DNA of 53,788 nt from Minisyncoccota bacterium (GTDB lineage Bacteria; Patescibacteriota; Minisyncoccia; Phycocordibacterales; XYD1-FULL-46-19): the NCBI GenBank assembly GCA_041663165.1, contig JBAZRF010000006.1:1-53788 (forward strand), written 5' to 3'. The notes under the pieces were generated by a model. It saw only the letters and a program-made list of their open reading frames with translations. It was not told the origin of the DNA and made no database searches. Shown here in pieces: positions 1,171-52,121 of this stretch. Both the position numbers and the translations under genes were made by a program. Positions within the stretch are counted from its first letter, which is position 1, and the number at the start of each line of letters is the position of its first letter.

Positions 1171-1224
1171 CTTGCCCCGTTAAAACTACTTGGTAGTTTT
1201 TTTGCGGGGTGTTATTATCTACTC

Positions 1225-1995
1225 ATGTTCACTTGGGCGCGACGGCGACAATTGTATTATTTATTGGGGGTGTTGGCCTTTTTTGCCGTGATTGGGTTGA
1301 TTTTATTTTTGATTTATCGGCCGCGGCCGACTTGTTTTGACGGCAAACAAAATCAAACCGAAACGGGTATTGATTGTGGGGGAACTTGCGCTTTGGCCTG
1401 CGCGCCGGACGTTATCCCGCTCAAAGTTTACTGGGCGAGACCCCTAAAGGTTAATGACGGTTGGTATGACGTGGCCGCCTTAGTTGAAAATGAAAATTTA
1501 AACTTTGGCGTCCGCCGTGCTCCTTACACTCTATATCTCTACGATAAGGATCATGTTCTCTTGAACAAACAAACGGGCGAAACCTTTATTAACCCAGCCG
1601 AAAAGTTCATTGTTTTTGCTAGTCGTTTAAACACCGGCTCAAGTATCGCTGACCAGGCTTTTTTAGAGTTCGGTAATAACCTTGTTTGGGAGAAGGCTAG
1701 GCCAGTGCCCAGAGTAATTAATATTGAGCGTAAAAACTTTACCAATAAGCCTCGACCCCAATTGCAAATTACCGTGACCAATCTGACGCTCGATCCAATT
1801 TCTAATCTCCGGGTTTCAACTGTTTTATCTGATGGTAATAATAATGCGATGGCGGCTTCGGCAACTTTTGTTGATAAATTAAAGGCCCAAGAGACAAAAG
1901 AAATTTTTTTAACTTGGCCAATACCCTTACCCCTTGATCCGACCTTTTTTGAGTTATACTGGCGGCTAAACTCTTTTGATCTCCTAGCTAATTAA
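1225..1995 (+). CDS. Hypothetical membrane-anchored protein with a Cys-rich CxDGxxNxxExGxDCGGxC motif
   Basis: The tracked ORF 1003..1995 starts inside the 5S gene, so the first ATG after the terminator (1225, MFTWARRR) was taken. One N-terminal TM helix (LYYLLGVLAFFAVIGLILFLIY) is followed by CFDGKQNQTETGIDCGGTC and a beta-rich domain. Confidence 0.7.
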   Translation: MFTWARRRQLYYLLGVLAFFAVIGLILFLIYRPRPTCFDGKQNQTETGIDCGGTCALACAPDVIPLKVYWARPLKVNDGWYDVAALVENENLNFGVRRAPYTLYLYDKDHVLLNKQTGETFINPAEKFIVFASRLNTGSSIADQAFLEFGNNLVWEKARPVPRVINIERKNFTNKPRPQLQITVTNLTLDPISNLRVSTVLSDGNNNAMAASATFVDKLKAQETKEIFLTWPIPLPLDPTFFELYWRLNSFDLLAN

Positions 1996-1996
1996 T

Positions 1997-3130
1997 ATGT
2001 TATTAGCCCTCAAGAAATTGAATTGCCGTCTCGACTGGCTACTCATTTCGGCGACCTTACCGCTGGTGGTTTTTGGCCTCATTACGATGAACTCATTTTT
2101 GACGGAGAGTTATTTTTTTGATCGACAAATTACCTGGGTTCTTTTTTCCTATGCTTTGCTCTTGGCCCTGTCTTTTGGTGATTGGCGTTTTTTGCGTAAA
2201 AGCTGGCTTTTGGTAGTTTTTTATTTTGTGGCAATTGCGGTTTTGGCAACCCTTTTTGTTTTGGGGCAAGTTACCAAGGGAGCTCAAAGCTGGCTCTCCT
2301 TTGGTGGTTTATCTCTCCAGCCTGCCGATTTTATGAAACTGGTTTTAGTCTTAATGCTTGCCAAATATTTTTCGAAACGTCACATCGAAATTGCTAACAT
2401 CAGACACATTATTGTTTCGGGCCTATATGCACTTATTCCCTTTATTTTTATTTTGCTTCAACCAGATTTTGGTTCGGCTTTAATTATTTTTTTGATCTGG
2501 CTAGGCATGATTTTAGTTTCAGGTGTATCTAAAAAACATTTAACCTTTTTAACCATTGCCGCTGTTTTGGTCTCGGTTATTGCTTGGTCGTTCGTGCTTC
2601 AACCCTACCAACAAAAAAGAATTATGACTTTTATCCATCCGCTAGCTGATATTCACGGCTCGGGCTATAACGCTTTTCAGTCCACGATTGCCGTTGGCTC
2701 GGGGCAAATTCTGGGCAAAGGGGTTGGCTATGGTACGCAATCGCGGCTCAAATTTTTGCCAGAATACCAAACCGATTTTATTTTTGCCGCTTTTGCGGAG
2801 GAGTGGGGACTGATTGGCGTGTTAATTTTATTCCTATTGTTTGGCGTGGTTATTTGGCGTATTTTGGCGAATGCTTTGGTCGGGGCGACCAATTTTGAAA
2901 CCTTATTTGGGTTAGGTATTGCCATTATGTTTCTCTCTCACTTCATAATTCACGTCGGGATGAATATTGGGATTTTACCGGTGACCGGTTTGCCAATGCC
3001 GCTTATGAGTTATGGCGGATCGCATTTAATGACCGAGTTTATTGGTCTCGGCATCCTCATGGGCATGCGCAAATACTCCTTATCCTTCCATCGTGACGAT
3101 GCGAAAAATGAGTTTATTGGGCCCCAATAG
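1997..3130 (+). CDS. SEDS-family peptidoglycan glycosyltransferase (RodA/FtsW)
   Basis: 377 aa polytopic membrane protein. Carries the C-terminal SEDS signature GILPVTGLPMPLMSYGGSHL and the PDFGSALI motif. Confidence 0.9.
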   Translation: MLLALKKLNCRLDWLLISATLPLVVFGLITMNSFLTESYFFDRQITWVLFSYALLLALSFGDWRFLRKSWLLVVFYFVAIAVLATLFVLGQVTKGAQSWLSFGGLSLQPADFMKLVLVLMLAKYFSKRHIEIANIRHIIVSGLYALIPFIFILLQPDFGSALIIFLIWLGMILVSGVSKKHLTFLTIAAVLVSVIAWSFVLQPYQQKRIMTFIHPLADIHGSGYNAFQSTIAVGSGQILGKGVGYGTQSRLKFLPEYQTDFIFAAFAEEWGLIGVLILFLLFGVVIWRILANALVGATNFETLFGLGIAIMFLSHFIIHVGMNIGILPVTGLPMPLMSYGGSHLMTEFIGLGILMGMRKYSLSFHRDDAKNEFIGPQ

Positions 3131-3143
3131 GCGCTCGGTTGCT

Positions 3144-3265
3144 CCCGCTTAAAAACCTCGCCTTAAAATTTTCCAGCGAAAATTTTTTGCTCCTCTCGAA
3201 CGATTTGCTCCTCGCTTTGCTCGGAGACCATGCCAAATCGTTCTGCGAGAGGCTTTTTAAGCGGG
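3144..3265. terminator. Long nested inverted repeat between convergent genes (candidate bidirectional terminator or structured RNA)
   Basis: The outer 12-bp stem pairs CCCGCTTAAAAA (3144-3155) with TTTTTAAGCGGG (3254-3265). The inner stem pairs CCTCTCGAACGATTTG (3192-3207) with CAAATCGTTCTGCGAGAGG (3234-3252) and has a 3-nt bulge. Confidence 0.4.
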
Positions 3266-3302
3266 ACAACCTCGCTTGGTTGAAGCAGCAAAAACAATTT
3301 TC

Positions 3303-4055
3303 TCAAACATGGTTGGGTTTTCTGTATACATTTACTACTCCTCCAGAGGAGGAGGCTGTGCCAGGTATAGTTTTTTCTTTGATAAAGCCTGCTGTCAAAA
3401 GGTCTCCATCGTATTCAAGACCATGTAACGAAATCGCTCCTCTTGGGGTCACGCGGAAAATCTGTTCCGCTAAGTATTTTGCGTATCTCTTTTCTTCTGG
3501 CCTATCGCTACTATAAAGTACTCCTTCTTCGAATAATCCAAAACTTACAACAACTTCCGATTCGTCAGGTTGACGTATTAGACACGACAAAGCATCAATT
3601 CCCGTTTTAATATCTACTGTGTCAAAATTAGAAGTTCCTATTGCGCCGAAAAATGGGGCGTTTATTTTTCTCCCTGCATCGCCAATTTCTATGACCCTTA
3701 CCCCTTCAAGTTCGTTGTGCAAAAACCCCAAAATGGCACCATCTAAACTATATAGGTCATAAGGACTTTTATCTTCTTCAAATTGTGTTTGAGAAGCTGG
3801 TGTTTCAGTAAAGCTCTTAACAAGGTTTTGAGCTTCTTCGTTGGTAAACAATCCTAAGAGTTCGGGTGTTATTTTATCCAAAATTTCTTTCTCGGCATCT
3901 TTTTTTATCTCTGCTGGGCGTTCGCTCGCACTTCTTAAATACCAGGGCACATCTTCTTGTCCTACCACTTCGGCTATCGGCAATAATTCTTCTCGCGCCT
4001 TTTTAATCCTTAAGGCTATTTCATTTGCATTTCTACTGTTGGGGGTTGTTTCCAT
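3303..4055 (-). CDS. Hypothetical protein (250 aa, soluble, acidic)
   Basis: Long ORF with host-like codon usage. It starts 8 nt downstream of the stop of the GT4 gene on the same strand. I recognise no motif. Confidence 0.6.
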   Translation of the reverse strand: METTPNSRNANEIALRIKKAREELLPIAEVVGQEDVPWYLRSASERPAEIKKDAEKEILDKITPELLGLFTNEEAQNLVKSFTETPASQTQFEEDKSPYDLYSLDGAILGFLHNELEGVRVIEIGDAGRKINAPFFGAIGTSNFDTVDIKTGIDALSCLIRQPDESEVVVSFGLFEEGVLYSSDRPEEKRYAKYLAEQIFRVTPRGAISLHGLEYDGDLLTAGFIKEKTIPGTASSSGGVVNVYRKPNHV

Positions 4056-4062
4056 GGGTCAT

Positions 4063-5205
4063 TTATTTTCTATAAAGCTCCACTGTTTTTTCTACCATCT
4101 TTTTGAGCGAAAAATTGGCCGTCACGCGTTGGCGGAGGTTTTTGCCGGCGAGGTCGCAATACTTCGGTTTTTTGAGCATGAAAAGGAGGGATTTTTTAAT
4201 TTCCTCGACATTGTCGGGCGGGACGAGGATGCCCAGTTCGGGGTCGGTAATCACTTCGGGAATACCGCCAACTTCGGAGGCGATAATCGGGAGGCCGGCG
4301 GCGCCAGCTTCGAGGATGACGTAAGGGAAGGCTTCGGTTCGCGAGGTGAGGGTAAAAATATCAAAGGCTTTAAGATAGGCACGAGCATCTTCGACACGGC
4401 CAAAAAAGTGGATACGGTTTTCGAGTCGTTTGGCGCGAGCTAGTCTTTTTAATTGCTCAAGTTCTTCGCCTTCACCAATAATCATTAAGTTCATTGACCA
4501 GCCAAGCGAGTTCCCGATAAGGGCGCGTACCGTTAGGGCAAAAGCGTCAATCAATGAATCTAGGCCCTTGTTAGGATGAAGCTCGGAAATTGTGCCAATC
4601 CAAAAACGATCGTTATGGCCAGGGAAAAGTTCTCGCCGGGCGACCGATTTCTCAAAAAATTTGATCGTCGGCAAACCGTTATAGATAGTTACCAATTTAT
4701 TTTTAATAAACGGCCAAGAGCTGATTTGGTTTTTTAGACAATCGGCGACCGTAATCACCTGATGGCATAAAATAATTGAGAGCCAATGGCTTAATTTGAT
4801 TAAACTTTTTTGCCAATTCGGTCGGGTCTCGTTGAAGGCTAAACCATGAACGGTAAAAATAATTTTAGGCACGCCGGCGAGTCTCCCGGCTAAAGAACCT
4901 AATCCGCCAATTTTTGAGCTATTTAAATGAATTATTTGAGGCTTCTCTTTTTTAAAAATCTTTAAAAGTTGCCAAAATGATTTTAAATCTTTAGCAAAAT
5001 TGATATCTCGTCCCAATTCGGGAATTTTAATGGTCTTAACCCCGGCGCCGACTAACTTTTTTTCGAGCGCCTCAAACTCGCCCATAATGACGGTTGTGTC
5101 AAAGTCGGCGCGGGGGAGGGTGGTGGCTAATTCATAAACATAACGTTGAGCGCCACCCCAATTTCCCTTGGTGATAACATAAAAAATTTTGGTCTTTTCG
5201 GCCAT
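4063..5205 (-). CDS. Glycosyltransferase family 4 (GT-B)
   Basis: Begins with N-terminal IFYVITKGNWGGAQRYV. The C-terminal part carries TSRTEAFPYVILEAGAAGLPIIASEVGGIPEVI, the EX7E-type GT4 signature. Confidence 0.85.
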   Translation of the reverse strand: MAEKTKIFYVITKGNWGGAQRYVYELATTLPRADFDTTVIMGEFEALEKKLVGAGVKTIKIPELGRDINFAKDLKSFWQLLKIFKKEKPQIIHLNSSKIGGLGSLAGRLAGVPKIIFTVHGLAFNETRPNWQKSLIKLSHWLSIILCHQVITVADCLKNQISSWPFIKNKLVTIYNGLPTIKFFEKSVARRELFPGHNDRFWIGTISELHPNKGLDSLIDAFALTVRALIGNSLGWSMNLMIIGEGEELEQLKRLARAKRLENRIHFFGRVEDARAYLKAFDIFTLTSRTEAFPYVILEAGAAGLPIIASEVGGIPEVITDPELGILVPPDNVEEIKKSLLFMLKKPKYCDLAGKNLRQRVTANFSLKKMVEKTVELYRK

Positions 5206-5253
5206 GCCAAAAGTGTAGCATAATCGGGCTTTTTGGTGTATGCTAGCCCTGAT

Positions 5254-6567
5254 ATGAAGATCACGTCCAAAAAGGAGACACTGGTACTCTTGGTGGGCGA
5301 TATCATCGTCTTCTGCGTCGCTCTCTGGCTCACCTTGTTTGTTCGTAACGCCGAATATCCGAGTGGCTCGCTTTTCTATTCCTTGCTCATCCCTTTCTCG
5401 TTCATTTTTATTCTCTGGGTGTTGGTTTTTTATATTGCTGATTTATATGGCAAGCACACCTCAATTTTTCGCCGCAAATTGCCCCGGGTAATTTTTTATG
5501 CTCAATTAGCCAACTCCACCATTGCCGTGATCTTCTTTTATTTCATTCCTTATTTTGGCGTTACTCCTAAAACATTGTTGTTTGTTGATCTCTTCATCTC
5601 TTTCTTTTTGCTATTTGCTTGGCGCGGTTGGTTGGTCCCTAATATCCATCTCAATTTGCCAGAGAAAATTTATTTTGCCTGCCGCGGCCAAGAGGTTAAT
5701 GACATTATTTCAGAAATAAAAAGCAATCCTGGTTACAATATTTCTATCGCTAAAGAAAATGAAATTAAAGATATTAAAAAAACGGGCATCACCGCTATTG
5801 TGGTTAATCTTTATGACGAGGAGATAACCGAAGCGCTGAAGAATTTTTATGGCATGATTTTTTCAGGTATTCGTTTTATTCCACTTCATATTCTCTACGA
5901 GGAGTTGTTTGACCGCGAACCGGTCTTGTCGCTTAAGGAGCAATGGTTTTTAGAAAATATTTCCAATCGGCCCAAACCGGTTTATGACGGTCTAAAGCGA
6001 TTGATGGACATCATTATTGCCGGACTCTTGGGTCTAGTCTCCCTCGTTTTTTATCCATTTGTTTACCTTGGTATGAAACTTGATGACAGAGGAGATCTCT
6101 TCAGTTTTCAAGATCGAGTTGGCAAGAACAATAAGATTATTCGGATGATTAAATTTCGAACGATGAGAATTGCCAATGACGGTGCCCAATTTACCAAAGG
6201 CAAAGCTGATAATGAGGTCACTAAGTTTGGCCACTTTTTGCGCAAAACGCGTATTGATGAGGTGCCTCAGCTTTGGAACATCTTACGTGGCGATATTTCG
6301 TTAATTGGTCCGCGACCAGAATTTGCCGACCCGGTGGCACTCTATAGTCAAGAAATTCAGTATTATAATATTCGCCACATTATCAAGCCGGGCCTCTCGG
6401 GTTGGGCGCAGATTTATGGCGAGCATCCCCATCACGGGATTGATATCAGTAGTACGCGCAATAAATTTTCTTACGACTTGTATTACATCAAAAACCGTAG
6501 TTTCTGGTTGGACCTAAGCATCGCTCTTAAAACGGTCAAAATTTTATTAATGAGGAAGGGGCGATAA
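5254..6567 (+). CDS. Polyprenyl-phosphate sugar-phosphate transferase (WbaP/EpsL-type bacterial sugar transferase)
   Basis: N-terminal TM helices precede the C-terminal signature KFGHFLRKTRIDEVPQLWNILRGDISLIGPRP. The start is uncertain: ATG 5254 was chosen, and the tracked ORF opens at TTG 5233. Confidence 0.88.
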   Translation: MKITSKKETLVLLVGDIIVFCVALWLTLFVRNAEYPSGSLFYSLLIPFSFIFILWVLVFYIADLYGKHTSIFRRKLPRVIFYAQLANSTIAVIFFYFIPYFGVTPKTLLFVDLFISFFLLFAWRGWLVPNIHLNLPEKIYFACRGQEVNDIISEIKSNPGYNISIAKENEIKDIKKTGITAIVVNLYDEEITEALKNFYGMIFSGIRFIPLHILYEELFDREPVLSLKEQWFLENISNRPKPVYDGLKRLMDIIIAGLLGLVSLVFYPFVYLGMKLDDRGDLFSFQDRVGKNNKIIRMIKFRTMRIANDGAQFTKGKADNEVTKFGHFLRKTRIDEVPQLWNILRGDISLIGPRPEFADPVALYSQEIQYYNIRHIIKPGLSGWAQIYGEHPHHGIDISSTRNKFSYDLYYIKNRSFWLDLSIALKTVKILLMRKGR

Positions 6568-6571
6568 TAAT

Positions 6572-7474
6572 ATGTCAAAAATTATTGTCACCGGCGGTGC
6601 CGGATTTATCGGTTCTAATCTCACTGACAAGTTAATTGAACGAGGCGATGAGGTTATTGTCATCGATAATTTATCGGGTGGCAAAAAAGAACAAATAAAC
6701 CCCAAAGCTATTTTCCATCAACTTGATATTACCAATCTCAAATCAATTAAGCCGATTTTTACCGGGTTTGATTACGTTTTCCATTTAGCAGCCTTACCGC
6801 AGGTATTTTATTCAATTGACCATCCGGTTGAAACTAATGAAATTAATGCCACGGGGACACTTAATGTTCTCTTGGCGGCCAAGGAGGCGGGTGTTAAAAA
6901 AGTTATTTACTCAGCTTCCGCTTCGGTTTATGGCGTTCAGGAGAAAATGCCCTTGAGAGAAGATGCTCCGGCCTTGCCCAATAGCCCTTATGGTTTGCAA
7001 AAATATATCGGGGAATTATATTGCCAGCTTTTCTCTGAGATTTATGATTTACCAACTGTTCGACTGCGCTATTTTAATGTTTTTGGTCCAAGACAGAGTG
7101 AAGAGGGCGCCTACGCTCTCGTCGTGGCTAAATTTCTCAAACAACGACGCGAGGGTCAAGCTTTAACGATTATCGGTGATGGCACACAAACTCGAGATTT
7201 TGTTAACGTTCGAGATGTCGTCCGAGCTAATATTTTGGCAATGGAAAAAGATGTTCCGGCCGGTGAGGTTTTAAACATTGGTTCCGGGGTTAACTCCTCG
7301 GTTAAAACCATTGCTGATTTAATTGGGGGAGATATTGAATATTTGCCGGCTCGATTAGAATTGCACGATAGTTTGGCCGACAATGCCAAGGCTCGTAATT
7401 TGCTGGGCTGGGTACCCGAGGTGGGGCTAGAAGAGGGGATTGCCGAGCTAAAAAAATTACAAAATTTAAAATAA
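6572..7474 (+). CDS. NAD-dependent sugar epimerase/dehydratase (GalE/WbpP-like SDR)
   Basis: Contains the Rossmann motif VTGGAGFIGSNL and the catalytic YxxxK motif in SPYGLQKYIGE. Confidence 0.88.
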   Translation: MSKIIVTGGAGFIGSNLTDKLIERGDEVIVIDNLSGGKKEQINPKAIFHQLDITNLKSIKPIFTGFDYVFHLAALPQVFYSIDHPVETNEINATGTLNVLLAAKEAGVKKVIYSASASVYGVQEKMPLREDAPALPNSPYGLQKYIGELYCQLFSEIYDLPTVRLRYFNVFGPRQSEEGAYALVVAKFLKQRREGQALTIIGDGTQTRDFVNVRDVVRANILAMEKDVPAGEVLNIGSGVNSSVKTIADLIGGDIEYLPARLELHDSLADNAKARNLLGWVPEVGLEEGIAELKKLQNLK

Positions 7475-7477
7475 ATT

Positions 7478-8266
7478 ATGATTGTCGATGGTAAAAAATT
7501 AGCGGACGATATCAAAACGACCCTTCGACTCGCCTTGCTCGCTCAGGGCAAGAATTTACGGCTAGATGTTATTTTGGTTGGTGATAACCTCGTGTCGCAG
7601 AAATATGTCAAACGAAAGAAAAAGGTTGGCGAGGAAATTGGTATCGAAGTAATCGTCCATGAATTGATGAGAGAGATAACCCAAATTGAATTAGAAGAAG
7701 AAATTGAAAATTTAAATAATAACGAAAGGGTCAATGGGATTATTGTTCAATTGCCACTGCCGCCACAGATTGACCAAGAAAAAATCTTAAATTTGGTTTC
7801 GCCCGACAAAGACATTGATGCCTTGAGTCGTGAGGCCAAAGTTTTGTCACCGACCGTCGGGGCGATTAGAGAAATTTTAGAAAAAAACAAAGTTTCGCTT
7901 GCTGGCAAGAGGGTCGTGGTCGTTGGCAATGGTAAATTAGTTGGTCGGCCCGTTTCAGTTTGGTTAACCCAAGAGGGAGTTAGTGTTGAGGTCATTGACA
8001 TTGATACAAAAAATCCGGAAGAGGCCTTGCTTCAAGCCGATATTATTGTGAGTGGGGTCGGGAAGCCCGGCTTAATTACGTCGGATAAAATAAAAGAAGG
8101 AGTTGTTTTAATTGATGCTGGCACGGCCGAATCGGGCGGCCAGCTTAAGGGCGATGCCGATCCGGCTTGTGCCGAAAAGTGCTCGCTCTTCACTCCGGTC
8201 CCGGGTGGTGTCGGCTCTCTCACGGTTGTGATGCTTTTCAAAAATCTTCTCGAACTATCTCAATAG
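7478..8266 (+). CDS. folD: Bifunctional methylenetetrahydrofolate dehydrogenase/cyclohydrolase
   Basis: Matches FolD over its full length: SQKYVKRKKK, GIIVQLPLP, VVVGNGKLVGRP, TPVPGGVG. Confidence 0.9.
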   Translation: MIVDGKKLADDIKTTLRLALLAQGKNLRLDVILVGDNLVSQKYVKRKKKVGEEIGIEVIVHELMREITQIELEEEIENLNNNERVNGIIVQLPLPPQIDQEKILNLVSPDKDIDALSREAKVLSPTVGAIREILEKNKVSLAGKRVVVVGNGKLVGRPVSVWLTQEGVSVEVIDIDTKNPEEALLQADIIVSGVGKPGLITSDKIKEGVVLIDAGTAESGGQLKGDADPACAEKCSLFTPVPGGVGSLTVVMLFKNLLELSQ

Positions 8267-8281
8267 GTTTATAATAATTTA

Positions 8282-8743
8282 GTGGATTACCTAATTTATT
8301 TTTGCGCTGTAATTTTGCCTTGGGTTTTGGGAATCGGACTGGTTGGTTATTTTGTTGTCACCAAGAAAAAAATTGCGGCTTTGCGCTTGATTGGCCTGTC
8401 ATTTTTGAGCGCGCTTATTGCTTGGTTTATCGTCAGTTTATATAAATACAATTTTCCCAGCCCTCGCCCGTTTGAGGTTCTAACTAATCTCAAGCCATTA
8501 TTTGTTACCGGGAGGGGAGACGCTTTTCCCTCCGGCCACGCCACTTTTATGGGTGCCCTGGCCATCGGTGTTTTTCTCCAAAACAAAAAACTTGGTCTGG
8601 TTTTTATCGCCGGGGCGATTATTATCACTATTGCTCGTGTGCTTGCCAATGTCCACTGGCCCATAGACGTGGTTGCTGGCTTGCTCTGGGGCGCCCTGGT
8701 CTCAATCGCCGCTTGGTTGATTTTTCGTCGATTTTCCTTATAA
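8282..8743 (+). CDS. PAP2-family phosphatase (likely undecaprenyl-diphosphate/lipid phosphatase)
   Basis: GTG start. Four TM helices. PAP2 motifs PSGH (FPSGHATF) and ARVLANVHWPIDVVAG are present. Confidence 0.8.
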   Translation: MDYLIYFCAVILPWVLGIGLVGYFVVTKKKIAALRLIGLSFLSALIAWFIVSLYKYNFPSPRPFEVLTNLKPLFVTGRGDAFPSGHATFMGALAIGVFLQNKKLGLVFIAGAIIITIARVLANVHWPIDVVAGLLWGALVSIAAWLIFRRFSL

Positions 8744-8752
8744 TAGCCCTAT

Positions 8753-10060
8753 ATGACAAAGATCCGGTTTTGGGCCATTATCCTGCTCCTGGCGGGAATT
8801 TTAATTGGCTATTTCAATTATTACTCACAAGTTAACCCACAATGGAGTTTTTATAAACCCTTTAAATTAGGCCTTGACCTCTCAGGCGGTAGCCGCTTAA
8901 CCTATGAGGCCGATGTCTCGCGCTTAAATCCGGCCGATGTCCAAGATGCCATGTCCTCTTTGCGCGAGGTCATTGATCGTCGCGTTAATGTCTTTGGCGT
9001 ATCAGAGCCAATTGTCCAGACCGAGAGTTCCTCTCTTTCTGGCACAACTTATAATCGCCTAATCGTTGAATTGCCCGGCGTGACCGATATTAAAGAGGCT
9101 ACCAAAATGATCGCCGCCACCCCGCAATTGGAATTTCAAGTCCTAAAGCCAGGGGTAACGGCCGAAACCGCCAGCTCAACTGATTTTATCGCGACTGGTT
9201 TAACCGGCCGATATTTGAGGAAAGCCCAAGTGACCTTTAATCAAAACTCTTTATCGCCGTCGATTTCTATCGAGTTTACTAGCGAGGGGGCGAAACTTTT
9301 TGCGGCCATTACCAAAGCTAACATTAATCGTCCGGTGGCAATTTTGCTTGATAACCAAATTATTTCAGCGCCGAATGTGCGCGAAGAAATTCGTGATGGC
9401 CGGGCCGAGATTAGTGGCCAATTTACGGTTGATGAGGCTCGCAATTTGGTGCGCGACTTAAATCTTGGCGCTTTGCCGGTTCCGATTAAGTTAGCGTCGA
9501 CCGAAATTATTGGCGCCACACTCGGTAGCGAAGCGGCGCAAAAGGGCGTTGAAGCGGGACTCATCGGGCTACTGATTGTCGCCGTCTTTATGATTCTTTG
9601 GTATCGTTTACCCGGTTTAGTCGCCGTGGTCTCACTTTCCATTTACGTGATGCTGATGCTCGCCATCTTTAAACTTTTGCCGGTTACCTTAACGGCGGCT
9701 GGCATGGCTGGCTTTATTCTCTCAATTGGCATTGCGGTTGACGCTAATGTCCTGATCTTTGAGCGCTTTCGCGAAGAACTTAAGGCGGGGAAGGGGATGC
9801 ATGAGGCCGCCAAAGAGGGCTTTCATCGCGCCTGGTCTTCGATTCGTGATTCGAATCTGTCGAGCGTTATTTCGGCCGCGATCCTCTTTTGGTTTGGCAC
9901 GAGCCTAATTAAGGGTTTTGCCCTGACACTGATTTTGGGCATTATCGTGAGCATGTTTACGGCCATTGTCGTTACTCGAACCCTCCTTTTTGCTCTTGGC
10001 TTTCGTAATCAGGTCGGCATTACTAAATTCTTATTCGGCAGCGCTTTCTTCAAGCACTAA
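8753..10060 (+). CDS. secD: Protein translocase subunit SecD
   Basis: N-terminal TM helix, a periplasmic domain (LGLDLSGGSRLTYE) and a C-terminal 5-TM block. It lies directly upstream of secF. Confidence 0.92.
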   Translation: MTKIRFWAIILLLAGILIGYFNYYSQVNPQWSFYKPFKLGLDLSGGSRLTYEADVSRLNPADVQDAMSSLREVIDRRVNVFGVSEPIVQTESSSLSGTTYNRLIVELPGVTDIKEATKMIAATPQLEFQVLKPGVTAETASSTDFIATGLTGRYLRKAQVTFNQNSLSPSISIEFTSEGAKLFAAITKANINRPVAILLDNQIISAPNVREEIRDGRAEISGQFTVDEARNLVRDLNLGALPVPIKLASTEIIGATLGSEAAQKGVEAGLIGLLIVAVFMILWYRLPGLVAVVSLSIYVMLMLAIFKLLPVTLTAAGMAGFILSIGIAVDANVLIFERFREELKAGKGMHEAAKEGFHRAWSSIRDSNLSSVISAAILFWFGTSLIKGFALTLILGIIVSMFTAIVVTRTLLFALGFRNQVGITKFLFGSAFFKH

Positions 10061-10069
10061 AATAAACAT

Positions 10070-10987
10070 ATGCAAATTGTAAAATACAGACGAATTTTCT
10101 TCACCGGCTCACTGATTCTGGTTGGCATCGCCCTCTATTCCTTATTTAGTTTTAGCTTAAATCTTGGTTCAGATTTTACCGGTGGAACAATCATGGAGAT
10201 TGAATATGTTGGGGCGCGGCCAAATGTGGCTGATATCAAAACGGCGCTAGCCAGCACAAAGTTAGAAAGTCTGTCGGTTGTGCCAATGGGAGAGAAGGGT
10301 CTTATCGTCAAGGCTAAGGTAATTAGCGACGCCGAAAAGGATACCGTAAATAAAGCGCTCTCGCTTGGTGGCAAGGCGCAATTCACCGAAAAAAGATTTT
10401 CCCAAGTTGGTCCTTCGCTTGGTAAAGAATTATCTCGCAAGGGGATGATCGCCATTGTATTAGTTGTCTTGCTCATCATCATCTTTATTGCTTTTGCTTT
10501 TCGCCAAGTCTCTAAACACCACATGGCCTCATGGAAATATGGCGTGGCGGCAATTATTGCCCTAGTCCACGACATCACTATTTCAGCCGGGGCGATGGCT
10601 TTGCTGGGACATTTCTACGGCGCGGAGGCAGACGCCCTTTTCCTCACCGCTCTCTTAACTATTCTCGGCCTCTCGGTAAATGACACCATCGTTGTATTTG
10701 ATCGAATTAGAGAGAACCTAAATCGCCATGAGAGCAATGATTTTGCCGAAGTGGCGGGAATCAGTATTAACGAAACTTACATTCGTTCAATCAATACCAC
10801 TCTTACGATTATCATTACGCTGATTTGTTTGTTAATCTTTGGCCCCGAATCGACTCGTTATTTCTCGGCTGTTCTCCTCGTTGGGATGACGGTGGGAACT
10901 TATTCCTCAATCTTCGTGGCCTCTAACCTCTTGGTAGAATGGGAGACCTGGCAACGCCGTCGCTTGGCCGTTAAGGTCAAAAAATAA
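10070..10987 (+). CDS. secF: Protein translocase subunit SecF
   Basis: Contains LGSDFTGGT and the SecF TM block, including TILGLSVNDTIVVFDRIREN. Confidence 0.92.
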   Translation: MQIVKYRRIFFTGSLILVGIALYSLFSFSLNLGSDFTGGTIMEIEYVGARPNVADIKTALASTKLESLSVVPMGEKGLIVKAKVISDAEKDTVNKALSLGGKAQFTEKRFSQVGPSLGKELSRKGMIAIVLVVLLIIIFIAFAFRQVSKHHMASWKYGVAAIIALVHDITISAGAMALLGHFYGAEADALFLTALLTILGLSVNDTIVVFDRIRENLNRHESNDFAEVAGISINETYIRSINTTLTIIITLICLLIFGPESTRYFSAVLLVGMTVGTYSSIFVASNLLVEWETWQRRRLAVKVKK

Positions 10988-11002
10988 GGAGATATAAAAT
11001 AC

Positions 11003-11040
11003 AGCAGAAAATGGCCCAATTGGGCCATTTTCTGCTTTTG
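11003..11040 (+). terminator. Rho-independent terminator after secDF
   Basis: A perfect hairpin forms between AGCAGAAAATGGCCCA and TGGGCCATTTTCTGCT (11003-11036), followed by TTTT. Confidence 0.85.
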
Positions 11041-11049
11041 TGGATAACC

Positions 11050-11077
11050 TTGACGCTCTTTATTTTTCCTGTATAAT
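11050..11077 (+). promoter_or_regulatory. Sigma70-type promoter for 16S rRNA
   Basis: TTGACG (11050-11055), a 16-nt spacer, then TATAAT (11072-11077). It lies ~210 nt upstream of the mature 16S 5' end. Confidence 0.6.
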
Positions 11078-11242
11078 GGCCTAGTCACCAGTTTTTAGCT
11101 GGTGCCTATTTAGATAGTCCCTTGTCAATTTAAGCATCAAAACAAAACCCCCAATTTTACACGGTAAAATTAGGAGGGTAACCAGTGTTAACCCTATAGA
11201 GTATAGCAAGTACTCATTAGGGTAAATTAAGTAAGATGAAGA

Positions 11243-11268
11243 AAATGTTTTTTCTTCTGTCCCGTTCT
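11243..11268 (+). other. 5' strand of the pre-16S processing stem
   Basis: AAATGTTTTTTCTTCTGTCCCGTTCT is the exact reverse complement of 12899-12924. Confidence 0.8.
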
Positions 11269-11289
11269 ATTAAGCTAAATCAAATGCTT

Positions 11290-12750
<1,461 letters not shown>

Positions 12751-12898
12751 ATTACGTTCCGAGATTGCCACAAGCAATCAAGGAAAATCGGCGATATCGT
12801 CTCTGACGATAAGGTGATGATTCTATTTTCACCAATTGAATTCTTTTCGAAGGAATTCAAAGAACAATGAATTCGAGGTTTCGTCTCGTAAAACGATA

Positions 12899-12924
12899 AG
12901 AACGGGACAGAAGAAAAAACATTT
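12899..12924 (+). other. 3' strand of the pre-16S processing stem
   Basis: AGAACGGGACAGAAGAAAAAACATTT forms a perfect 26-bp complement with 11243-11268. Confidence 0.8.
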
Positions 12925-12982
12925 ACCCAGTGGAATATAGCGAAAATTCCACAGGGTGAACTTAACACTTTGATGCTTTAAG

Positions 12983-13022
12983 GCACTCAAAAGACGCCCT
13001 AAGATGGGCGTTTTTTGAGTGC
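12983..13022 (+). terminator. Terminator after the 16S transcription unit
   Basis: In GCACTCAAAAGACGCCCTAAGATGGGCGTTTTTTGAGTGC, an inner GC stem (GACGCCC/GGGCG) is followed by a T6 run. An outer stem pairs GCACTCAAAA with TTTTGAGTGC. Confidence 0.7.
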
Positions 13023-13050
13023 TTGACAAAGATCCTGTTTATGCTATAAT
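13023..13050 (+). promoter_or_regulatory. Consensus sigma70-type promoter of the PASTA-lipoprotein cassette
   Basis: TTGACA (13023-13028), a 16-nt spacer, then TATAAT (13045-13050). Confidence 0.65.
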
Positions 13051-13130
13051 GGAAGTTGGTAATAAGGAATGTTCTTCACATAATGGTTGTCGCTCATCAC
13101 GAGCGACATTACTTACAAGGAGAAGTCGAA

Positions 13131-13466
13131 ATGCGGAAGAGAGTGGCGATTGTCGTACTATCGGTGTTGGGCCTGTTCGCCCTGGTTTCTTGTTGGGTGA
13201 ACACTCCATCGCCGACTAAGGTTGTCCCGGTCGCTTTCCATGCCGTTGAGGCAAAAGCGGCGGACATCAAAGTGCCATCGTTCCTTGGGCTGAAGCCCGC
13301 TGACGCCGAACTAGTGGCCAAAGGGGCAGGTCTCGAGTTGGGTCAGAGTTTCGTCTGGACGACGCCAACCAAGAAGGAGGACGGACGAGTCATCGCTCAA
13401 ACTCCCAAAGCGGGGGAGAGGGTCGATGCCGGTTACTCCTTACAACTGGTGTACGGGAAGTACTAG
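13131..13466 (+). CDS. Small lipoprotein with a single PASTA domain (111 aa), G+C-rich
   Basis: AAGGAG (13117-13122) lies 8 nt before ATG 13131. Signal peptide with lipobox: MRKRVAIVVLSVLGLFALVSC. PASTA-like module: VPSFLGLKPADAELVAKGAGLELG...VIAQTPKAGERVDAGYSLQLVYG. The codons are GC3-rich, unlike those of neighbouring genes. Confidence 0.8.
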   Translation: MRKRVAIVVLSVLGLFALVSCWVNTPSPTKVVPVAFHAVEAKAADIKVPSFLGLKPADAELVAKGAGLELGQSFVWTTPTKKEDGRVIAQTPKAGERVDAGYSLQLVYGKY

Positions 13467-13485
13467 TCTCCAGACCTTAAGTTCA

Positions 13486-13524
13486 GCGCTCGCGCCGATG
13501 GAGATACATCGGAGCGAGCGTTTT
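13486..13524 (+). terminator. Rho-independent terminator of the PASTA cassette
   Basis: GCGCTCGCGCCGATG pairs with CATCGGAGCGAGCG across a GAGATA loop, followed by TTTT. Confidence 0.8.
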
Positions 13525-13533
13525 GTATTGAGG

Positions 13534-13562
13534 TTGAAATCGGCTCATTTTTTTGATACAGT
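13534..13562 (+). promoter_or_regulatory. Candidate promoter for the tRNA-Ile/murDC unit
   Basis: TTGAAA (13534-13539), a 17-nt spacer, then TACAGT (13557-13562). Confidence 0.45.
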
Positions 13563-13645
13563 TTAAACTGTCCACCTTCGTTCGCCGGGGCGAGCTTCGG
13601 CGGGACGCTAAATTTTTATAGTCGCTTCGCTTCGTAAAAATTTGC

Positions 13646-13719: not shown

Positions 13720-13724
13720 CTAAA

Positions 13725-46586: not shown

Positions 46587-46615
46587 AAAATTATTAATAA
46601 TTTTTACTCAACAGG

Positions 46616-47506
46616 GTGAAAAAAATGAAACTCGAAACCAATTTTTTACTTTCTAAAATCACCACTTTTGAACTCGGCGGCCCAGCCCGGTTTTATTTAA
46701 AAGTAAGTTCGCCCGAAGAGGCGGTGGCCGCTGTTTTAATTGCTCAGGACAAAAAAATCAAACACTATTTGGTCGGCGGGGGAAGCAATTTAGTCTTTGC
46801 CGACAAGGGTTTCTTGGGCTTGGTGATTCATTGGTTATTGGCTAAACCGAAACTAGCTGATCTCAAAATCGTTAACTCAGAGATTGTTGCCTCGGCTGGA
46901 GTTAGACTGGCTGATTTAATTAAATTTGCGAACAAAAATGGTCTGGCCGGTTTAGAAAAATTGGCCGGCGTACCAGGCGTTGTCGGTGGCGCGGTGGTGG
47001 GTAATGCCGAGGCTTATGGTCAAAGTATTAGCGATTATCTCACCTGGGTTGAAATTTTCGACGGCGAGAAAATTCGTCGGATTGCCCAAAGAGATTGTCA
47101 ATTTAAGTATCGTGAGAGTATTTTTAAACATCAAAATTGGCTACTGTTGCGGGTCGGTTTTAAACTCAAAAAGGGAAAAGCCGCTCTCCTGATTGAAGAG
47201 AGTAAAAAAATTACTAAGATTCGTTGGGCCAAGTTTGGCCAGCACCCAATTTGCGCCGGCAGCTTTTTTAAAAACGTAATGGCTGATGGCAAAGTAATTT
47301 CAACGGCCAGTCTAATTGAGCAAGCAGGGATTGCTGATTTGAAACGTGGTGGCGTAAGGGTTGCTCCGTGGCACCATAATTTTTTAATCAATGACGGTAC
47401 CGGCACGACCAGTGATTTGTTGAGCCTTGCCAAGGAAATAAAAAAAATAGTCCACAAGAAATTAGGAATTAAGCTAGAAGAAGAGGTGCGCTTTGTGCTA
47501 AAATAG
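46616..47506 (+). CDS. murB: UDP-N-acetylenolpyruvoylglucosamine reductase
   Basis: FAD-binding TTFELGGPARFY and VGGGSNLVF, with a MurB C-terminal domain. The start is GTG 46616 or ATG 46625. Confidence 0.88.
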   Translation: MKKMKLETNFLLSKITTFELGGPARFYLKVSSPEEAVAAVLIAQDKKIKHYLVGGGSNLVFADKGFLGLVIHWLLAKPKLADLKIVNSEIVASAGVRLADLIKFANKNGLAGLEKLAGVPGVVGGAVVGNAEAYGQSISDYLTWVEIFDGEKIRRIAQRDCQFKYRESIFKHQNWLLLRVGFKLKKGKAALLIEESKKITKIRWAKFGQHPICAGSFFKNVMADGKVISTASLIEQAGIADLKRGGVRVAPWHHNFLINDGTGTTSDLLSLAKEIKKIVHKKLGIKLEEEVRFVLK

Positions 47507-47564
47507 ATAATGAATATTAAGAGTCTGATCTAAATTATTAATTTAATCCAAAATTTCTAACAGG

Positions 47565-48545
47565 ATGAAAAAACATATTTGGTTCTTTGTTGGCTTGATT
47601 GTTGTTGTTATCGCCATTGCTTTGTTGGTGACTTTTGTTCAAGTTGGTTTGCCTTGGTCGACGAGTCGAGGCGTATCTAATGGTTTTGGCGTTAATAGTG
47701 GTTCAGCCAGAAGTTCGGTTTCTAGCTTAAAAATGGCGGCATCCGACAGCGCCATCTCGGCGCCCATGTCTATTTCTTCGCCAACGCCGGCCGGCGGAGC
47801 CCCAACCGCCAGCATCCCGCGCAAAATTACCAAGACCGGCCAATTGAGTCTTTTGGTTGATAAGGCCGAAACTGCTGTGCAAAATATTCAGGCCATCGCC
47901 GAAAGCGCCACCGGTTATGTTAGCGACTCCAATCTTTATGAGGTAACCCCGGGCGTTAAGGCTGGTTCAATTACCATTCGCGTGCCAGCCGACAAGTTTG
48001 ACGAGACGATGGGAAAGATTAAGGAGTTGGCGTTTAAAGTTGAGAATGAGAGCTCTAATGCCAATGACGTTACCGATCAGTTCATTGACCTTGAGGCTCG
48101 TTTGAAAAATCTTAAAGCCGAAGAAACCCAATATCTTGATATATTAAAGAAAGCGCAAAAAATTGATGATATCATTAACGTCACCAACCACATCAATGAT
48201 GTTCGTAGTCAGATTGACAGTTGGCAGGGCCAGCTTAAATATCTTAATAGCCAGGTGGATCTTTCAACAATCACGGTTAACTTAACGGCCGAAAAAGAAG
48301 CGCAAATTTTCGGTATCAATTGGCGGCCGTTAACTATTATTAATCAAGCTCTTCATTCGCTCCTTACCGGTTTGGTCGGTTATGCCAATGTCATAATCTC
48401 GGTCATCATTTTCTTGCCAGTCATTGCCCTTTGGGTTGTCACCATTCTTCTTGTTCTCTGGATTCTCTGGCGAATTGTTAAACGACTAAGGAGGAGTTCG
48501 AGTGTTGGTGAAGTTAAAAAGAAAACGAAAAAACCAACCGCTTAA
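47565..48545 (+). CDS. DUF4349-like membrane protein
   Basis: N-terminal TM helix, a central coiled coil (DQFIDLEARLKNLKAEETQYLDILKKA) and a C-terminal TM helix. This layout matches DUF4349 as I remember it. Confidence 0.65.
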   Translation: MKKHIWFFVGLIVVVIAIALLVTFVQVGLPWSTSRGVSNGFGVNSGSARSSVSSLKMAASDSAISAPMSISSPTPAGGAPTASIPRKITKTGQLSLLVDKAETAVQNIQAIAESATGYVSDSNLYEVTPGVKAGSITIRVPADKFDETMGKIKELAFKVENESSNANDVTDQFIDLEARLKNLKAEETQYLDILKKAQKIDDIINVTNHINDVRSQIDSWQGQLKYLNSQVDLSTITVNLTAEKEAQIFGINWRPLTIINQALHSLLTGLVGYANVIISVIIFLPVIALWVVTILLVLWILWRIVKRLRRSSSVGEVKKKTKKPTA

Positions 48546-48590
48546 ACCCACCCGCTTTTCTTCGTTCTCTCGTTGTGTATAATTAAGTCT

Positions 48591-50021
48591 ATGTCCTATA
48601 AGCCAACCATTGGTTTGGAAATTCACGTGGAGCTGAAAACAGCGACCAAGATGTTTTGCCGGTGCCAGAATAATCCGGACGAGACAAAGCCCAATGTTAA
48701 TATTTGCCCGGTGTGTACCGCTCAGCCTGGGGCACTGCCGGTGATTAATAAAGAAGCGGTAAGGCATGTTCTGCGGGTAGGCTCGGCGGTAGGTGGCACG
48801 ATTGCCGATTTTACTGAATTTGACCGCAAAAATTATTTTTATCCCGATATCCCCAAAGGTTATCAGATTAGCCAGTACAAATACCCGCTAATTTCTGGCG
48901 GTCAGTTAAATGGCGTTGAATTAACCAGAATTCATTTAGAAGAGGATACAGCTAAGTCAACTCACAGCAACAAAGCCGACGAAAGTTTAATCGATTTTAA
49001 CCGTGGCGGATTGCCCTTGATGGAATTGGTGACCGAGCCGGTAATTCATGATGGTAAGACCGCCTCGGCTTTTGCCAAAGAATTGCAGACGCTAATGCGT
49101 TATCTTGGCGCTTCGGAGGCCAATATGGAGAAAGGCCAAATGCGCTTGGAGGCTAATATCTCTGTTTCGAATACTGAGGAGTTGGGCACCAAAGTCGAAG
49201 TCAAAAACTTAAACTCTTTCAAGTCAGTAGAGAAGGCGATTGATTTTGAAATTGACCGGCAAATCAAGCAGCTAGAGAAAGGGGAGCAAGTGGTGCAGGA
49301 GACGCGTGGTTGGGATGAGAATAAGCAAATAACTTTTAGCCAGCGCCTAAAGGAGTCATCACACGACTATCGCTATTTCCCCGATCCGGATTTACCAAAA
49401 TTATTTTTGAGTGAGATTGCTGAGTTTCGACCCGAAGCGATAAAAAAATCTTTACCGCAATTGCCGTGGGAAAGGCGCGAGCATTTTGCCAAGACTTTTG
49501 GTTTGAAGTCGGAGGACGTCGAAGTTTTTGTGCAAGATCATCAATTGGCCGAATTCTTTAGGACGGTAACGGAAGAATTTGATTTGACCTTAGAAACGGC
49601 CGAGGCCTATCTTAGGGCGGCAGCCAATTATATTACCTCAGATCTTTTGGGTTTGGCCGCCACGACCGGCGAACTGCGTTTACCTAAAGAAAAAGATTAT
49701 GCCGAGCTAATTAAAATGGTGGTGGCGAGTGAGGTCTCCTCACGTGGCGCTAAAGATATTTTGGCGGTGATGATCAAAGACGGCGGCGAACCGCGAGTGA
49801 TTGCTAAAGAGAAAAATTTATTTCAGGTTCATGACGAAGGCGCAATCAGTGAGATTGTCGATAAGGTAATCGCTGCCAACCCAAGCGTTTTTGCCGAATT
49901 TAAGGGCGGCAAAGAAAAATCCCTCCAATTTCTGATCGGCCAAGCGATGAAAGAGAGTAAGGGTTCAGCTAATCCGGAACTGCTCAAAAAGCTATTTGTT
50001 GAAAAGATCCAAAAGAGTTAA
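48591..50021 (+). CDS. gatB: Asp/Glu-tRNA amidotransferase subunit B
   Basis: Contains PTIGLEIHVELKTATKMFC and FDRKNYFYPDIPKGYQISQ. ATG 48591 was chosen; the tracked ORF opens at TTG 48573, ahead of the TATAAT box. Confidence 0.92.
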   Translation: MSYKPTIGLEIHVELKTATKMFCRCQNNPDETKPNVNICPVCTAQPGALPVINKEAVRHVLRVGSAVGGTIADFTEFDRKNYFYPDIPKGYQISQYKYPLISGGQLNGVELTRIHLEEDTAKSTHSNKADESLIDFNRGGLPLMELVTEPVIHDGKTASAFAKELQTLMRYLGASEANMEKGQMRLEANISVSNTEELGTKVEVKNLNSFKSVEKAIDFEIDRQIKQLEKGEQVVQETRGWDENKQITFSQRLKESSHDYRYFPDPDLPKLFLSEIAEFRPEAIKKSLPQLPWERREHFAKTFGLKSEDVEVFVQDHQLAEFFRTVTEEFDLTLETAEAYLRAAANYITSDLLGLAATTGELRLPKEKDYAELIKMVVASEVSSRGAKDILAVMIKDGGEPRVIAKEKNLFQVHDEGAISEIVDKVIAANPSVFAEFKGGKEKSLQFLIGQAMKESKGSANPELLKKLFVEKIQKS

Positions 50022-50058: not shown

Positions 50059-51078
50059 ATGAAAAAAGTACGAGTGGGGATTAATGGTCTCGGACGCATC
50101 GGCCGGGCCTTTCTCAAGTTAGCAATTAAAAATCCGGATATTCAAATTGTCGGCGCCAACGACCTTGGTGATCTAGATAATATTGCCTATCTTTTGAAAT
50201 ATGATAGTGCTTATGGTAAATTTGCCGGCGATATTAAAACGGGGGACGGTAAATTAATTGTCGATGGTCAAGAAATTAAATTTACTCAAGAAAAAGATCC
50301 GGCCCAATTGCCTTGGGGAGCGCTTCAAGTTGATGTCGTTGTCGAGTCAACGGGTGTTTTCGAAACCTATGCTAAGGCCAAGGCTCACCTAGATGCGGGC
50401 GCGCGCAAGGTGGTTATTTCGGCGCCGGTTAAAGATGCGCCGCTTGCCGGTGTGCCGGGCGGGACTTTTCTTATCAACATTAATGATGAAGCTTTGGGCG
50501 ATCAGGTGATCACCTCAAATGGCTCGTGCACGACCAATTGCGCCGCGCCGGTTATTAAAATTATGGACGAGGCAATTGGCGTGGAGAAAGCTTTACTAAA
50601 TACGATCCATGGTTATACCGCTACCCAAAAACTAGTCGATGTGGCCGATGCTAAAGATTGGCGTCGTGGTCGGGCGGGCGCGATCAACCTCATTCCTTCA
50701 ACCACTGGCGCGGCCGTGGCGGTTGGTCAGGTCATTCCGCAGGTCCAGGGCAAGTTCGATGGCATTGCCGTGCGCGTGCCGGTCATTACCGGTTCAATGA
50801 TTGACGTAACCTTTATCGCTAAGCGTCCAACTTCGGTTGAGGAAGTAAATGTCATTCTTGAAAAAGCCGCTTCGCTCCCGCAATGGCAAAAAACTTTCAG
50901 CGTGACCAAAGAGGCCTTAGTCTCCTCCGATATTCTTGGTAGCCCCTTTGCTTCAATTGCCGACTTGTCTTATACCAAAGTCGTCGGTGGTAATCTGGTT
51001 AAAGTCATGGCTTGGTATGACAACGAAGCCGGCTATACCAATACTCTTGTAGAACACGTGATAAAGTTGGGGCAATAA
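50059..51078 (+). CDS. gap: Type I glyceraldehyde-3-phosphate dehydrogenase
   Basis: Contains INGLGRIGR, the active site SNGSCTTNCAAP and WYDNEAGY. Confidence 0.93.
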   Translation: MKKVRVGINGLGRIGRAFLKLAIKNPDIQIVGANDLGDLDNIAYLLKYDSAYGKFAGDIKTGDGKLIVDGQEIKFTQEKDPAQLPWGALQVDVVVESTGVFETYAKAKAHLDAGARKVVISAPVKDAPLAGVPGGTFLININDEALGDQVITSNGSCTTNCAAPVIKIMDEAIGVEKALLNTIHGYTATQKLVDVADAKDWRRGRAGAINLIPSTTGAAVAVGQVIPQVQGKFDGIAVRVPVITGSMIDVTFIAKRPTSVEEVNVILEKAASLPQWQKTFSVTKEALVSSDILGSPFASIADLSYTKVVGGNLVKVMAWYDNEAGYTNTLVEHVIKLGQ

Positions 51079-51084
51079 TTAAAA

Positions 51085-51639
51085 ATGCTTATTATTCTCT
51101 CTGTTCTTTACACCATCCTTTTCGTCATTGTTTTGTTCGGGATGATCATGCAGGGGGTGACAGTTATCAGTCTTATTTTTACTCGGGGCGTACCTTTTGT
51201 TTCTACTCCGTCCAAGAGGGTGGCTATTATCTTGGCGGCGGCTAAAATAAAACCTGGACAAATTTTTCTTGATCTTGGTTGTGGCAAGGGCGAATTTTTA
51301 ATTGAAGCAAGTCGAGACTATGGCGCGACGGCTATCGGTTACGAAGTCTCTCTCTGGCCATATCTCTGGGCTAAGGCTAGAATTATGATTTCCCGATCAA
51401 CCGCTACGATCAAATTTGCCAGCTTTTTAAAAGCCGATTTAAGTCAGGCCGATGTTATTTATTGTTATCTCTTGCGCGGGATGATGGCAAAATTGGAAAA
51501 AAAATTTGTTGCGGAGTTAAAGCCGGGCAGCCGGGTCTTCACCTACGCTTTTCCCTTGCCCAATCGACAGCCTAATGAGATCGTCAAGATTAAAGATGAA
51601 CGAAAAGTAGAAGGAAACCTGTATATTTATTTTTACTAA
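51085..51639 (+). CDS. Small class I SAM-dependent methyltransferase with an N-terminal TM helix
   Basis: SAM motif I is FLDLGCGKGEFL. The N-terminus is hydrophobic (MLIILSVLYTILFVIVLFGMI). Confidence 0.65.
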   Translation: MLIILSVLYTILFVIVLFGMIMQGVTVISLIFTRGVPFVSTPSKRVAIILAAAKIKPGQIFLDLGCGKGEFLIEASRDYGATAIGYEVSLWPYLWAKARIMISRSTATIKFASFLKADLSQADVIYCYLLRGMMAKLEKKFVAELKPGSRVFTYAFPLPNRQPNEIVKIKDERKVEGNLYIYFY

Positions 51640-51659
51640 ATTTGCTATAATAGCTGAAT

Positions 51660-52121
51660 ATGACGATCTATTTAGGCGCCGATCATGCGGGGTTTGAGTT
51701 GAAGGAAAAAATCAAAGCCTACCTCAAAGAAAAAGGGTTCTCCGTCCAAGACCAGGGCGCCTTTGCCGTTGATCCTGAAGACGATTACCCTGATTATGTG
51801 AAAATTGTCGCTAAGATGGTGCAGGGCGATCCCGAAAGCAAAGGGATTATTTTGGGTGGTTCGGGCCAGGGTGAGGCAATCTGTGCTAATCGGTTCAAAG
51901 GAGTACGAGCGGCGCTTTTTTATGGCGGGTCATTCGACATTATCAAACTCTCACGCGAACATAATAATACCAATGTTTTGTCGCTTGGCGCTCGCTTTCT
52001 AAATTTTGACCAAGCTAAAGAGGTGATTGATTTGTGGCTAGCCACACCATTCTCACAAGACAAACGCCATGCTCGCCGAATTTACGAAATTGACGACGGC
52101 TCAATGGGTAAAGTCATTTAA
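51660..52121 (+). CDS. rpiB: Ribose-5-phosphate isomerase B
   Basis: Contains IYLGADHAGFELKEKI, GILGGSGQGEAICANR and NTNVLSLGARF. Confidence 0.9.
   Translation: MTIYLGADHAGFELKEKIKAYLKEKGFSVQDQGAFAVDPEDDYPDYVKIVAKMVQGDPESKGIILGGSGQGEAICANRFKGVRAALFYGGSFDIIKLSREHNNTNVLSLGARFLNFDQAKEVIDLWLATPFSQDKRHARRIYEIDDGSMGKVI

Follow-up and report, generated by a model that had tools for sequence, protein, structure and literature searches.

The stretch of DNA considered here, hereafter the window, is an entire contig of 53.8 kb (JBAZRF010000006.1; 53,788 nucleotides, nt) from the genome of a Minisyncoccota bacterium (GCA_041663165.1; 741 kb on 16 contigs, 44% GC, rated 100% complete). It carries the 3' part of a 23S rRNA gene and a 5S rRNA gene and, 10 kb downstream, the 16S rRNA gene followed by tRNA-Ile, together with protein genes that include secD, secA, gatB and rpiB. 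Among named organisms, its GatB protein is most similar to that of Candidatus Vogelbacteria (81% identity), followed by Taylor-, Zambryskii-, Nomura-, Lloyd- and Yonathbacteria, which identifies the organism as a member of the Parcubacteria/Paceibacteria within the candidate phyla radiation (CPR). At nine protein genes of the window, listed in an earlier note on this DNA, a hexamer resembling TATAAT lies 6-10 nt before the start codon (Table 1). Here, we propose that these hexamers are -10 boxes of sigma-70 promoters standing so close to the ATG that they would yield leaderless mRNAs, translated independently of a Shine-Dalgarno (SD) sequence. Judging from sequence, we give this reading a probability of roughly 0.8.

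All nine hexamers and start codons are present in the DNA as the note had described them. The TGn extension of the -10 element accompanies five (1213, 16454, 35660, 38061 and 51646), and four have a -35 element matching at least 4 of 6 positions at a distance of 16-17 nt. Pfam domain boundaries settle where secA, gatB and rpiB start, with position 2 of the SecA_DEAD model aligning to residue 5 of SecA, position 2 of GatB_N to residue 6 of GatB, and position 1 of the rpiB model to residue 3 of its product. A spacer of 71 nt separates the gene starting at 35673 from a flippase-like gene that diverges from it. The least secure cases are 8270, with its GTG start and weak -35, and 17893, the least typical of the nine, which has AGGAGG inside its 10-nt gap and whose transcript probably has a leader of 3-4 nt. 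The note had cautioned that some boxes overlap upstream stop codons; this is the case at 8739-8744, where the box and the preceding gene's TAA stop overlap. It had also called the nine genes first in their operons, a description that is an assumption for five of them, several of the listed genes lying only 9-20 nt past a co-directional gene.

Table 1. Promoter-like elements with their start codons, and other features of the window. Gap, number of nt between hexamer and start codon; ORF, open reading frame; aa, amino acids.
Feature	Span	Strand	Hexamer	Gap	Start	Gene	Remarks
TTGGTA-17-(TGt)TATTAT	1190-1227	+	1213-1218	6	ATG 1225	256-aa ORF, no Pfam match	9/12 match, TG present; ORF directly after 5S rRNA
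TATAAT	8270-8284	+	8270-8275	6	GTG 8282	PAP2-family protein	weak -35; 15 nt after folD
TTGATT-16-TATAAT	8717-8755	+	8739-8744	8	ATG 8753	secD	10/12 match
TTGAGC-17-(TGc)TAGAAT	16431-16470	+	16454-16459	8	ATG 16468	72-aa hydrophobic ORF	DUF4015 gene 2 nt downstream
TAGAAA-17-TATAAT	17870-17911	+	17893-17898	10	ATG 17909	TrwB/VirD4-like ATPase	
TGcTATATT	35657-35675	+	35660-35665	7	ATG 35673	Wzy_C/TPR protein	
TGcTAATAT	38058-38077	+	38061-38066	8	ATG 38075	secA	
TATAAT	48578-48593	+	48578-48583	7	ATG 48591	gatB	
TGcTATAAT (51643-51651)	51643-51662	+		8	ATG 51660	rpiB	
TGcTACACT	5203-5220	-	5212-5217	6	ATG 5205	GT4 glycosyltransferase	additional to the nine
TATGCT	5239-5256	+	5239-5244	9	ATG 5254	sugar transferase	additional, weaker case
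TTGACG-16-TATAAT	11050-11077	+				16S rRNA	near-consensus; about 210 nt upstream of the gene
16S rRNA 3' tail GGAUUUAUUUCA	12738-12751	+				16S rRNA	CCUCC absent
TTGACA-16-TATAAT	13023-13050	+				small PASTA-domain cassette	perfect match; leader and AAGGAG site

The same arrangement recurs across the genome. A simple codon-usage caller gave 678 genes, each start being the first start codon (longest ORF) and hence independent of the motif. Relative to these starts, TANNNT (N, any nucleotide) has its first base at -12 in 13% of genes and between -15 and -12 in 33-35%; the background is 2.5-3% per upstream position (about 10% at the control offsets), and internal ATGs give about 1.2%. Summed over -15 to -12, exact TATAAT reaches 7-8%, compared with about 0.1% per position elsewhere, and is the top enriched hexamer between -22 and -4 (64 observed versus 3.7 expected, or 17-fold). 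An intergenic stretch of 60 nt or more precedes 260 of the genes; 96 of these have a box at -15 to -12, compared with 29 at control offsets and 34 +/- 5 in 1000 dinucleotide shuffles, none of which reached 96 (z = 11.7); the comparison with shuffled controls that the earlier note had proposed thus finds TANNNT enriched. Irrespective of gene calls, the pattern TATAAT-N6-9-ATG occurs at 88 sites in the genome, against 26 in the reversed control, and at six sites in the window, three of which are antisense inside genes.

How often the box is found depends on the space before the gene: it precedes 51-53% of genes that follow a co-directional neighbour by 20-99 nt, 43% of divergent genes and 9% of overlapping ones. 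Where there is an upstream spacer of at least 20 nt or a divergent neighbour, 186 of 388 genes (48%) have TANNNT at a gap of 5-10 nt. A strict rule (gap 6-9 and an ATG start, plus TGn, or exact TATAAT, or a 5/6 match with TTG) is satisfied by 101 genes at the first start and by 137 at some in-frame ATG within 50 codons, with decoy rates of 0.26% and 2%, respectively. The share of genes with an upstream spacer that carry the signature is thus 26-35% under the strict rule and 48% under the loose one. Counted by transcription unit, a third to a half have a promoter near enough to the start codon for the mRNA to be expected to begin with the AUG. The start codon is ATG in 168 of the 186 box-bearing genes (90%) and in 151 of the 202 boxless ones (75%), with longest-ORF calls inflating TTG and GTG in the latter.

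Around the hexamers stand the remaining parts of a housekeeping promoter. Across 249 aligned boxes the TGn positions are T in 54% and G in 49%, and positions -23, -22 and -21 relative to the hexamer, corresponding to the -35 element, are T (58%), T (53%) and G (33%); TTG at a spacing of 17 is found 35 times versus about 5 at other spacings. Scanning upstream regions for E. coli-consensus patterns (TGnTAnnnT, TTGnnn-16..18-TAnnnT and TATAAT) independently of the box alignment shows them concentrated at gaps 6-9, where 78 of the 220 extended -10 sites lie (37 at gap 6 itself, and about 1.5 at each gap outside this range), and shows no second peak at longer distances for leadered promoters. A sigma-70 promoter scan returned 52 sites, compared with 30 +/- 6 in shuffles. 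The elements of a sigma-70 promoter are found, namely the TAnnnT -10, the optional TGn and a TTGnnn -35 at 16-18 nt, as is the sigma factor, encoded with regions 3 and 4 by a 448-aa ORF on contig 8. The 16S rRNA promoter acts as a positive control for the use of canonical sigma-70 promoters in this organism, and in its case the transcript has a leader. Within the window, the two additional boxes before 5205 (- strand) and 5254 (+ strand) are back to back in a divergent spacer of 48 nt, so that there is no space for leaders.

Where would transcription begin? One option is that the promoters are real and the transcripts start slightly upstream of the ATG, leaving leaders of 1-5 nt. About 60% of the boxes at -15 to -12 do begin at -13 to -15, that is, with gaps of 7-9 rather than 6, and the gap is 10 at site 17893 and 10-16 in some orthologues. 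The mode, however, is exactly gap 6, which puts the hexamer at -12 to -7 relative to the A of the ATG, so that the canonical start point is that A; in addition, -1 is mostly a pyrimidine and the A at +1 is a purine, which together form the preferred start dinucleotide. We therefore regard such short leaders as unlikely to be the rule, and functionally they differ little from fully leaderless starts.

The box is also conserved gene by gene. We compared orthologues from 30 relatives of the same order (57-87% protein identity), whose spacers are not alignable. A TANNNT at a gap of 5-10 nt from the aligned ATG is present in 23 of 30 gatB, 20 of 27 secA and 16 of 29 rpiB orthologues, against an expectation from control positions of about 5 per gene. 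Nearly all the secA boxes are TGn-extended (TGnTAnnnT), and the rpiB boxes are of the TGnTATAAT type at a gap of 5-8, with 14 of the 16 at gap 6. Several secA orthologues have TGnTAnnnT 16-30 nt from the ATG; hence the element moves like a promoter and unlike a ribosome site. Of 79 gatB loci in public sequences of named Parcubacteria, the box is present in 61 (37 with TGn), compared with 12 at control positions, and only six have an SD core. Samples of 100-300 kb from members of the class have the -12 peak in a weaker form (35 versus 6.2 in genome G047, and 27 versus 7.8 in genome G040).

What might the ribosome use in place of an SD sequence? The 16S anti-SD is near-universal in bacteria. The earlier note had taken it to be missing here, and this is borne out: CCUCC is absent from the 16S end (...GGAAGCUGGUCGUGGAUUUAUUUCA) and from the next ~150 nt before the processing stem, as it is from the 16S in all 16 same-order relatives with a readable 3' end. 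The 16S tails differ between genera (UUUAUUUC, ACUAUUCC, AUUCUUCC, AAUAUUUC and others), a variation that looks like drift. These degenerate tails retain in common a loose AUUYCA-like core after GGA, which might act in processing instead of pairing with mRNA. Across the class, the sampled tails comprised 10 canonical ones (CCUCC) and 15 degenerate ones. On the mRNA side there is no SD enrichment, the frequency of GGAG, GAGG and AGGA being about 1% per position both before starts and elsewhere. Neither uL1 (PF00687), for which the same search matched 14 of 14 control genomes, nor bS21 was found in this 100%-complete genome, while IF3 is encoded, as is a short S1 protein with four domains (437 aa).

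Class members that keep CCUCC also make little use of it, with no clear SD use in three of four genomes and a modest excess in the fourth (G042; 15% versus 8%). These few genomes suggest that SD-independent initiation arose before the anti-SD decayed. In 100-kb samples of eight relatives, the signature and the state of the anti-SD do not go together in any simple way. As a marker in 60 class genomes, the ratio of TATAAT-N6-9-ATG over the reversed control was rejected as noisy and AT-dependent; it ranges over about 0.8-5.8 where the anti-SD is intact and about 1.2-4.9 where it is lost, with no separation. Separately, G047, which belongs to another order and has no anti-SD, has a bump of SD cores at -14 to -10 (9-14 genes per position versus a background of 3.3), which is odd for a ribosome without CCUCC.

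The hexamer could instead be an A/T-rich translation signal on leadered mRNA, either a non-SD ribosome site comparable to the A-rich sites of Bacteroidota or a partner of the altered 16S tail. Hexamers complementary to the genome's own tail (AAATAA, AATAAA and others) do peak at -13 to -7 (99 genes versus 24.5 in the control), and operon-internal genes are 50-57% A at -11 to -3. Specific pairing of A-rich hexamers with the altered tail was nonetheless rejected: identical hexamers are enriched to the same degree in relatives that have different tails, and an enrichment that appears whatever the tail reflects general A-richness rather than a new pairing. Nor does a ribosome site explain the box itself, which is accompanied by TGn and TTG at promoter spacings, remains constant while tails vary between genera, is rarest before tightly coupled internal genes and lies 16-30 nt from the ATG in some secA orthologues. 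We consider a translation signal very improbable. Chance matches in AT-rich spacers and stop codons, which could produce boxes such as that at 8739 over its TAA, some of the 33% TANNNT in spacers of 10-19 nt (through stops) and the three antisense window sites, are rejected for the set as a whole by the shuffles (z = 11.7), the positional controls in intergenic DNA, the 17-fold excess of TATAAT and the conservation of the box across orthologues, leaving them a negligible share of our belief and plausible only at single sites such as 8270 and 8739.

Thus, the suggestion of SD-independent, leaderless initiation is supported by motif position, promoter anatomy, conservation, absent SD enrichment and absent CCUCC, each of which is directly observed. 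Several points weigh against it. The box is missing from about half of the spacer-preceded genes; window examples with none at leaderless distance are those at 41285, 43864, 45874, 46616, 47565 and 50059 (GAPDH). Within spacers of 9-20 nt, TAA and TAG stops account for some of the boxes (as in the 33% quoted above for 10-19 nt). At a gap of 8-10 nt, the transcript may carry a leader of 1-4 nt. The gene starts are crude, being those of the longest ORF, and in the window this choice of start is too far upstream by 20 codons for secA and by 6 for gatB. Finally, GGAGG or AGGAGG lies 4-11 nt before the ATG of some 30-50 mostly small ORFs with a GC content of 0.50-0.63, and before such small GC-rich ORFs GGAGG at this distance is about 2.5-3 times commoner than at other spacings, despite there being no anti-SD. 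Examples in the window are the PASTA cassette (13023-13524) and 17899-17905. These SD-like ORFs could be foreign cassettes or the motif could serve another function.

The earlier note had gone further in calling this mode of initiation the default. The term is overstated, given the 26-48% of spacer-preceded genes with the signature, the tight operons and the SD-like minority. About 160 co-directional pairs are spaced at only -4 to +9 nt and have the A-rich junctions described above; genes so tightly spaced within operons cannot be leaderless.

In light of these findings, how might translation start in this organism? The hexamers would be the -10 boxes of promoters for the housekeeping sigma-70 factor, frequently extended by TGn and accompanied by a weak TTG -35 at 17 nt. 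With such a box 6-9 nt upstream of the ATG, promoter geometry predicts that RNA polymerase begins transcription at the A of that ATG or no more than a few bases from it. These mRNAs would lack a 5' leader, and, as in other bacteria, the ribosome together with initiator tRNA would bind their 5'-terminal AUG directly, independently of SD pairing. Operon-internal genes, with their A-rich junctions, would probably rely on coupling or re-initiation, or on binding of unstructured A-rich RNA. More broadly, the lineage may have abandoned SD/anti-SD pairing altogether, its first genes being leaderless, its downstream genes coupled at A-rich junctions and its freed 16S tail left to drift; for this wider account we see the balance as even. 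If SD pairing has been wholly abandoned, this would be a natural bacterial clade without any SD-led initiation.

Bacteria rich in leaderless mRNAs are already known, as group C of the GeneMarkS-2 classification, in the Actinobacteria (Mycobacterium tuberculosis, Streptomyces) and Deinococcus-Thermus (PMC6028130, PMC3898074, PMC3160421, PMC12340547). The present genome resembles them in having a Pribnow -10 element 6-8 nt before first-gene starts, in a quarter to a half of transcription units and apparently with AUG dominant; against the group's range of about 6-10 nt, its mode is gap 6. It differs in that group C genomes follow a dual model, keeping the anti-SD and using SD sites for their remaining genes, whereas here the SD core stays at about 1% per upstream position and the anti-SD is absent. 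The genome is also unlike those of group C in its size (0.74 Mb), its 44% GC and its promoters, which are often TGn-extended with a weak -35. The Bacteroidota (group B, with an A-rich non-SD site) likewise show no SD usage and have an A-rich stretch before starts, operon-internal ones included, but they keep the anti-SD and have their motif in leadered mRNAs, whereas the dominant positional signal here is a promoter; a single non-SD motif before all genes, on leadered mRNA and with the anti-SD kept, is not what we find. In leaderless archaea (group D; Haloferax, Sulfolobus) most first genes are also leaderless and SD use is minor, with the difference that a TATA box lies about 22-26 nt upstream and that the polymerase and initiation factors are archaeal.

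Loss of the anti-SD has been published for a large, uL1-less subgroup of Parcubacteria (Tsurumaki et al. 2022, RNA 28:1041, PMC9297842). Our organism resembles that subgroup in its 16S without CCUCCU, in uL1 and bS21 not being found and in its relatives among the Vogel-, Taylor-, Zambryskii- and Nomurabacteria. That paper does not state what replaces SD pairing, nor does the word "leaderless" appear in it. Our literature search, in which subscription journals were not covered, found no paper on leaderless starts in Parcubacteria, Patescibacteria, the Candidate Phyla Radiation or Saccharibacteria, and none tying anti-SD loss to leaderless starts. Hence the mechanism is known, from mycobacteria and Deinococcus, and is apparently unreported in this lineage and in combination with a total absence of SD and anti-SD. 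The present data provide a candidate answer to how anti-SD-less Parcubacteria replace SD pairing. The promoter-at-ATG layout, conserved gene by gene across the order, offers a concrete and testable account of translation start. It also affects gene calling in the CPR, where SD-based start models choose wrong starts, and it bears on whether leaderless initiation is an ancestral or a fallback mode.

Three further observations concern the window itself. The rRNA genes are unlinked (1-13720), with 10 kb of protein genes (among them glycosyltransferases, folD and secDF) lying between 23S-5S and 16S with tRNA-Ile. Between the 16S rRNA gene and tRNA-Ile sits the PASTA-domain ORF unit (13023-13466), which is leadered and SD-like, unlike its neighbours. 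Two neighbouring genes with no leaderless box, at 46600-46630 and 47550-47580, both start with AACAGG-(G/A)TG-AAAAAA and are possibly paralogues encoding secreted proteins.

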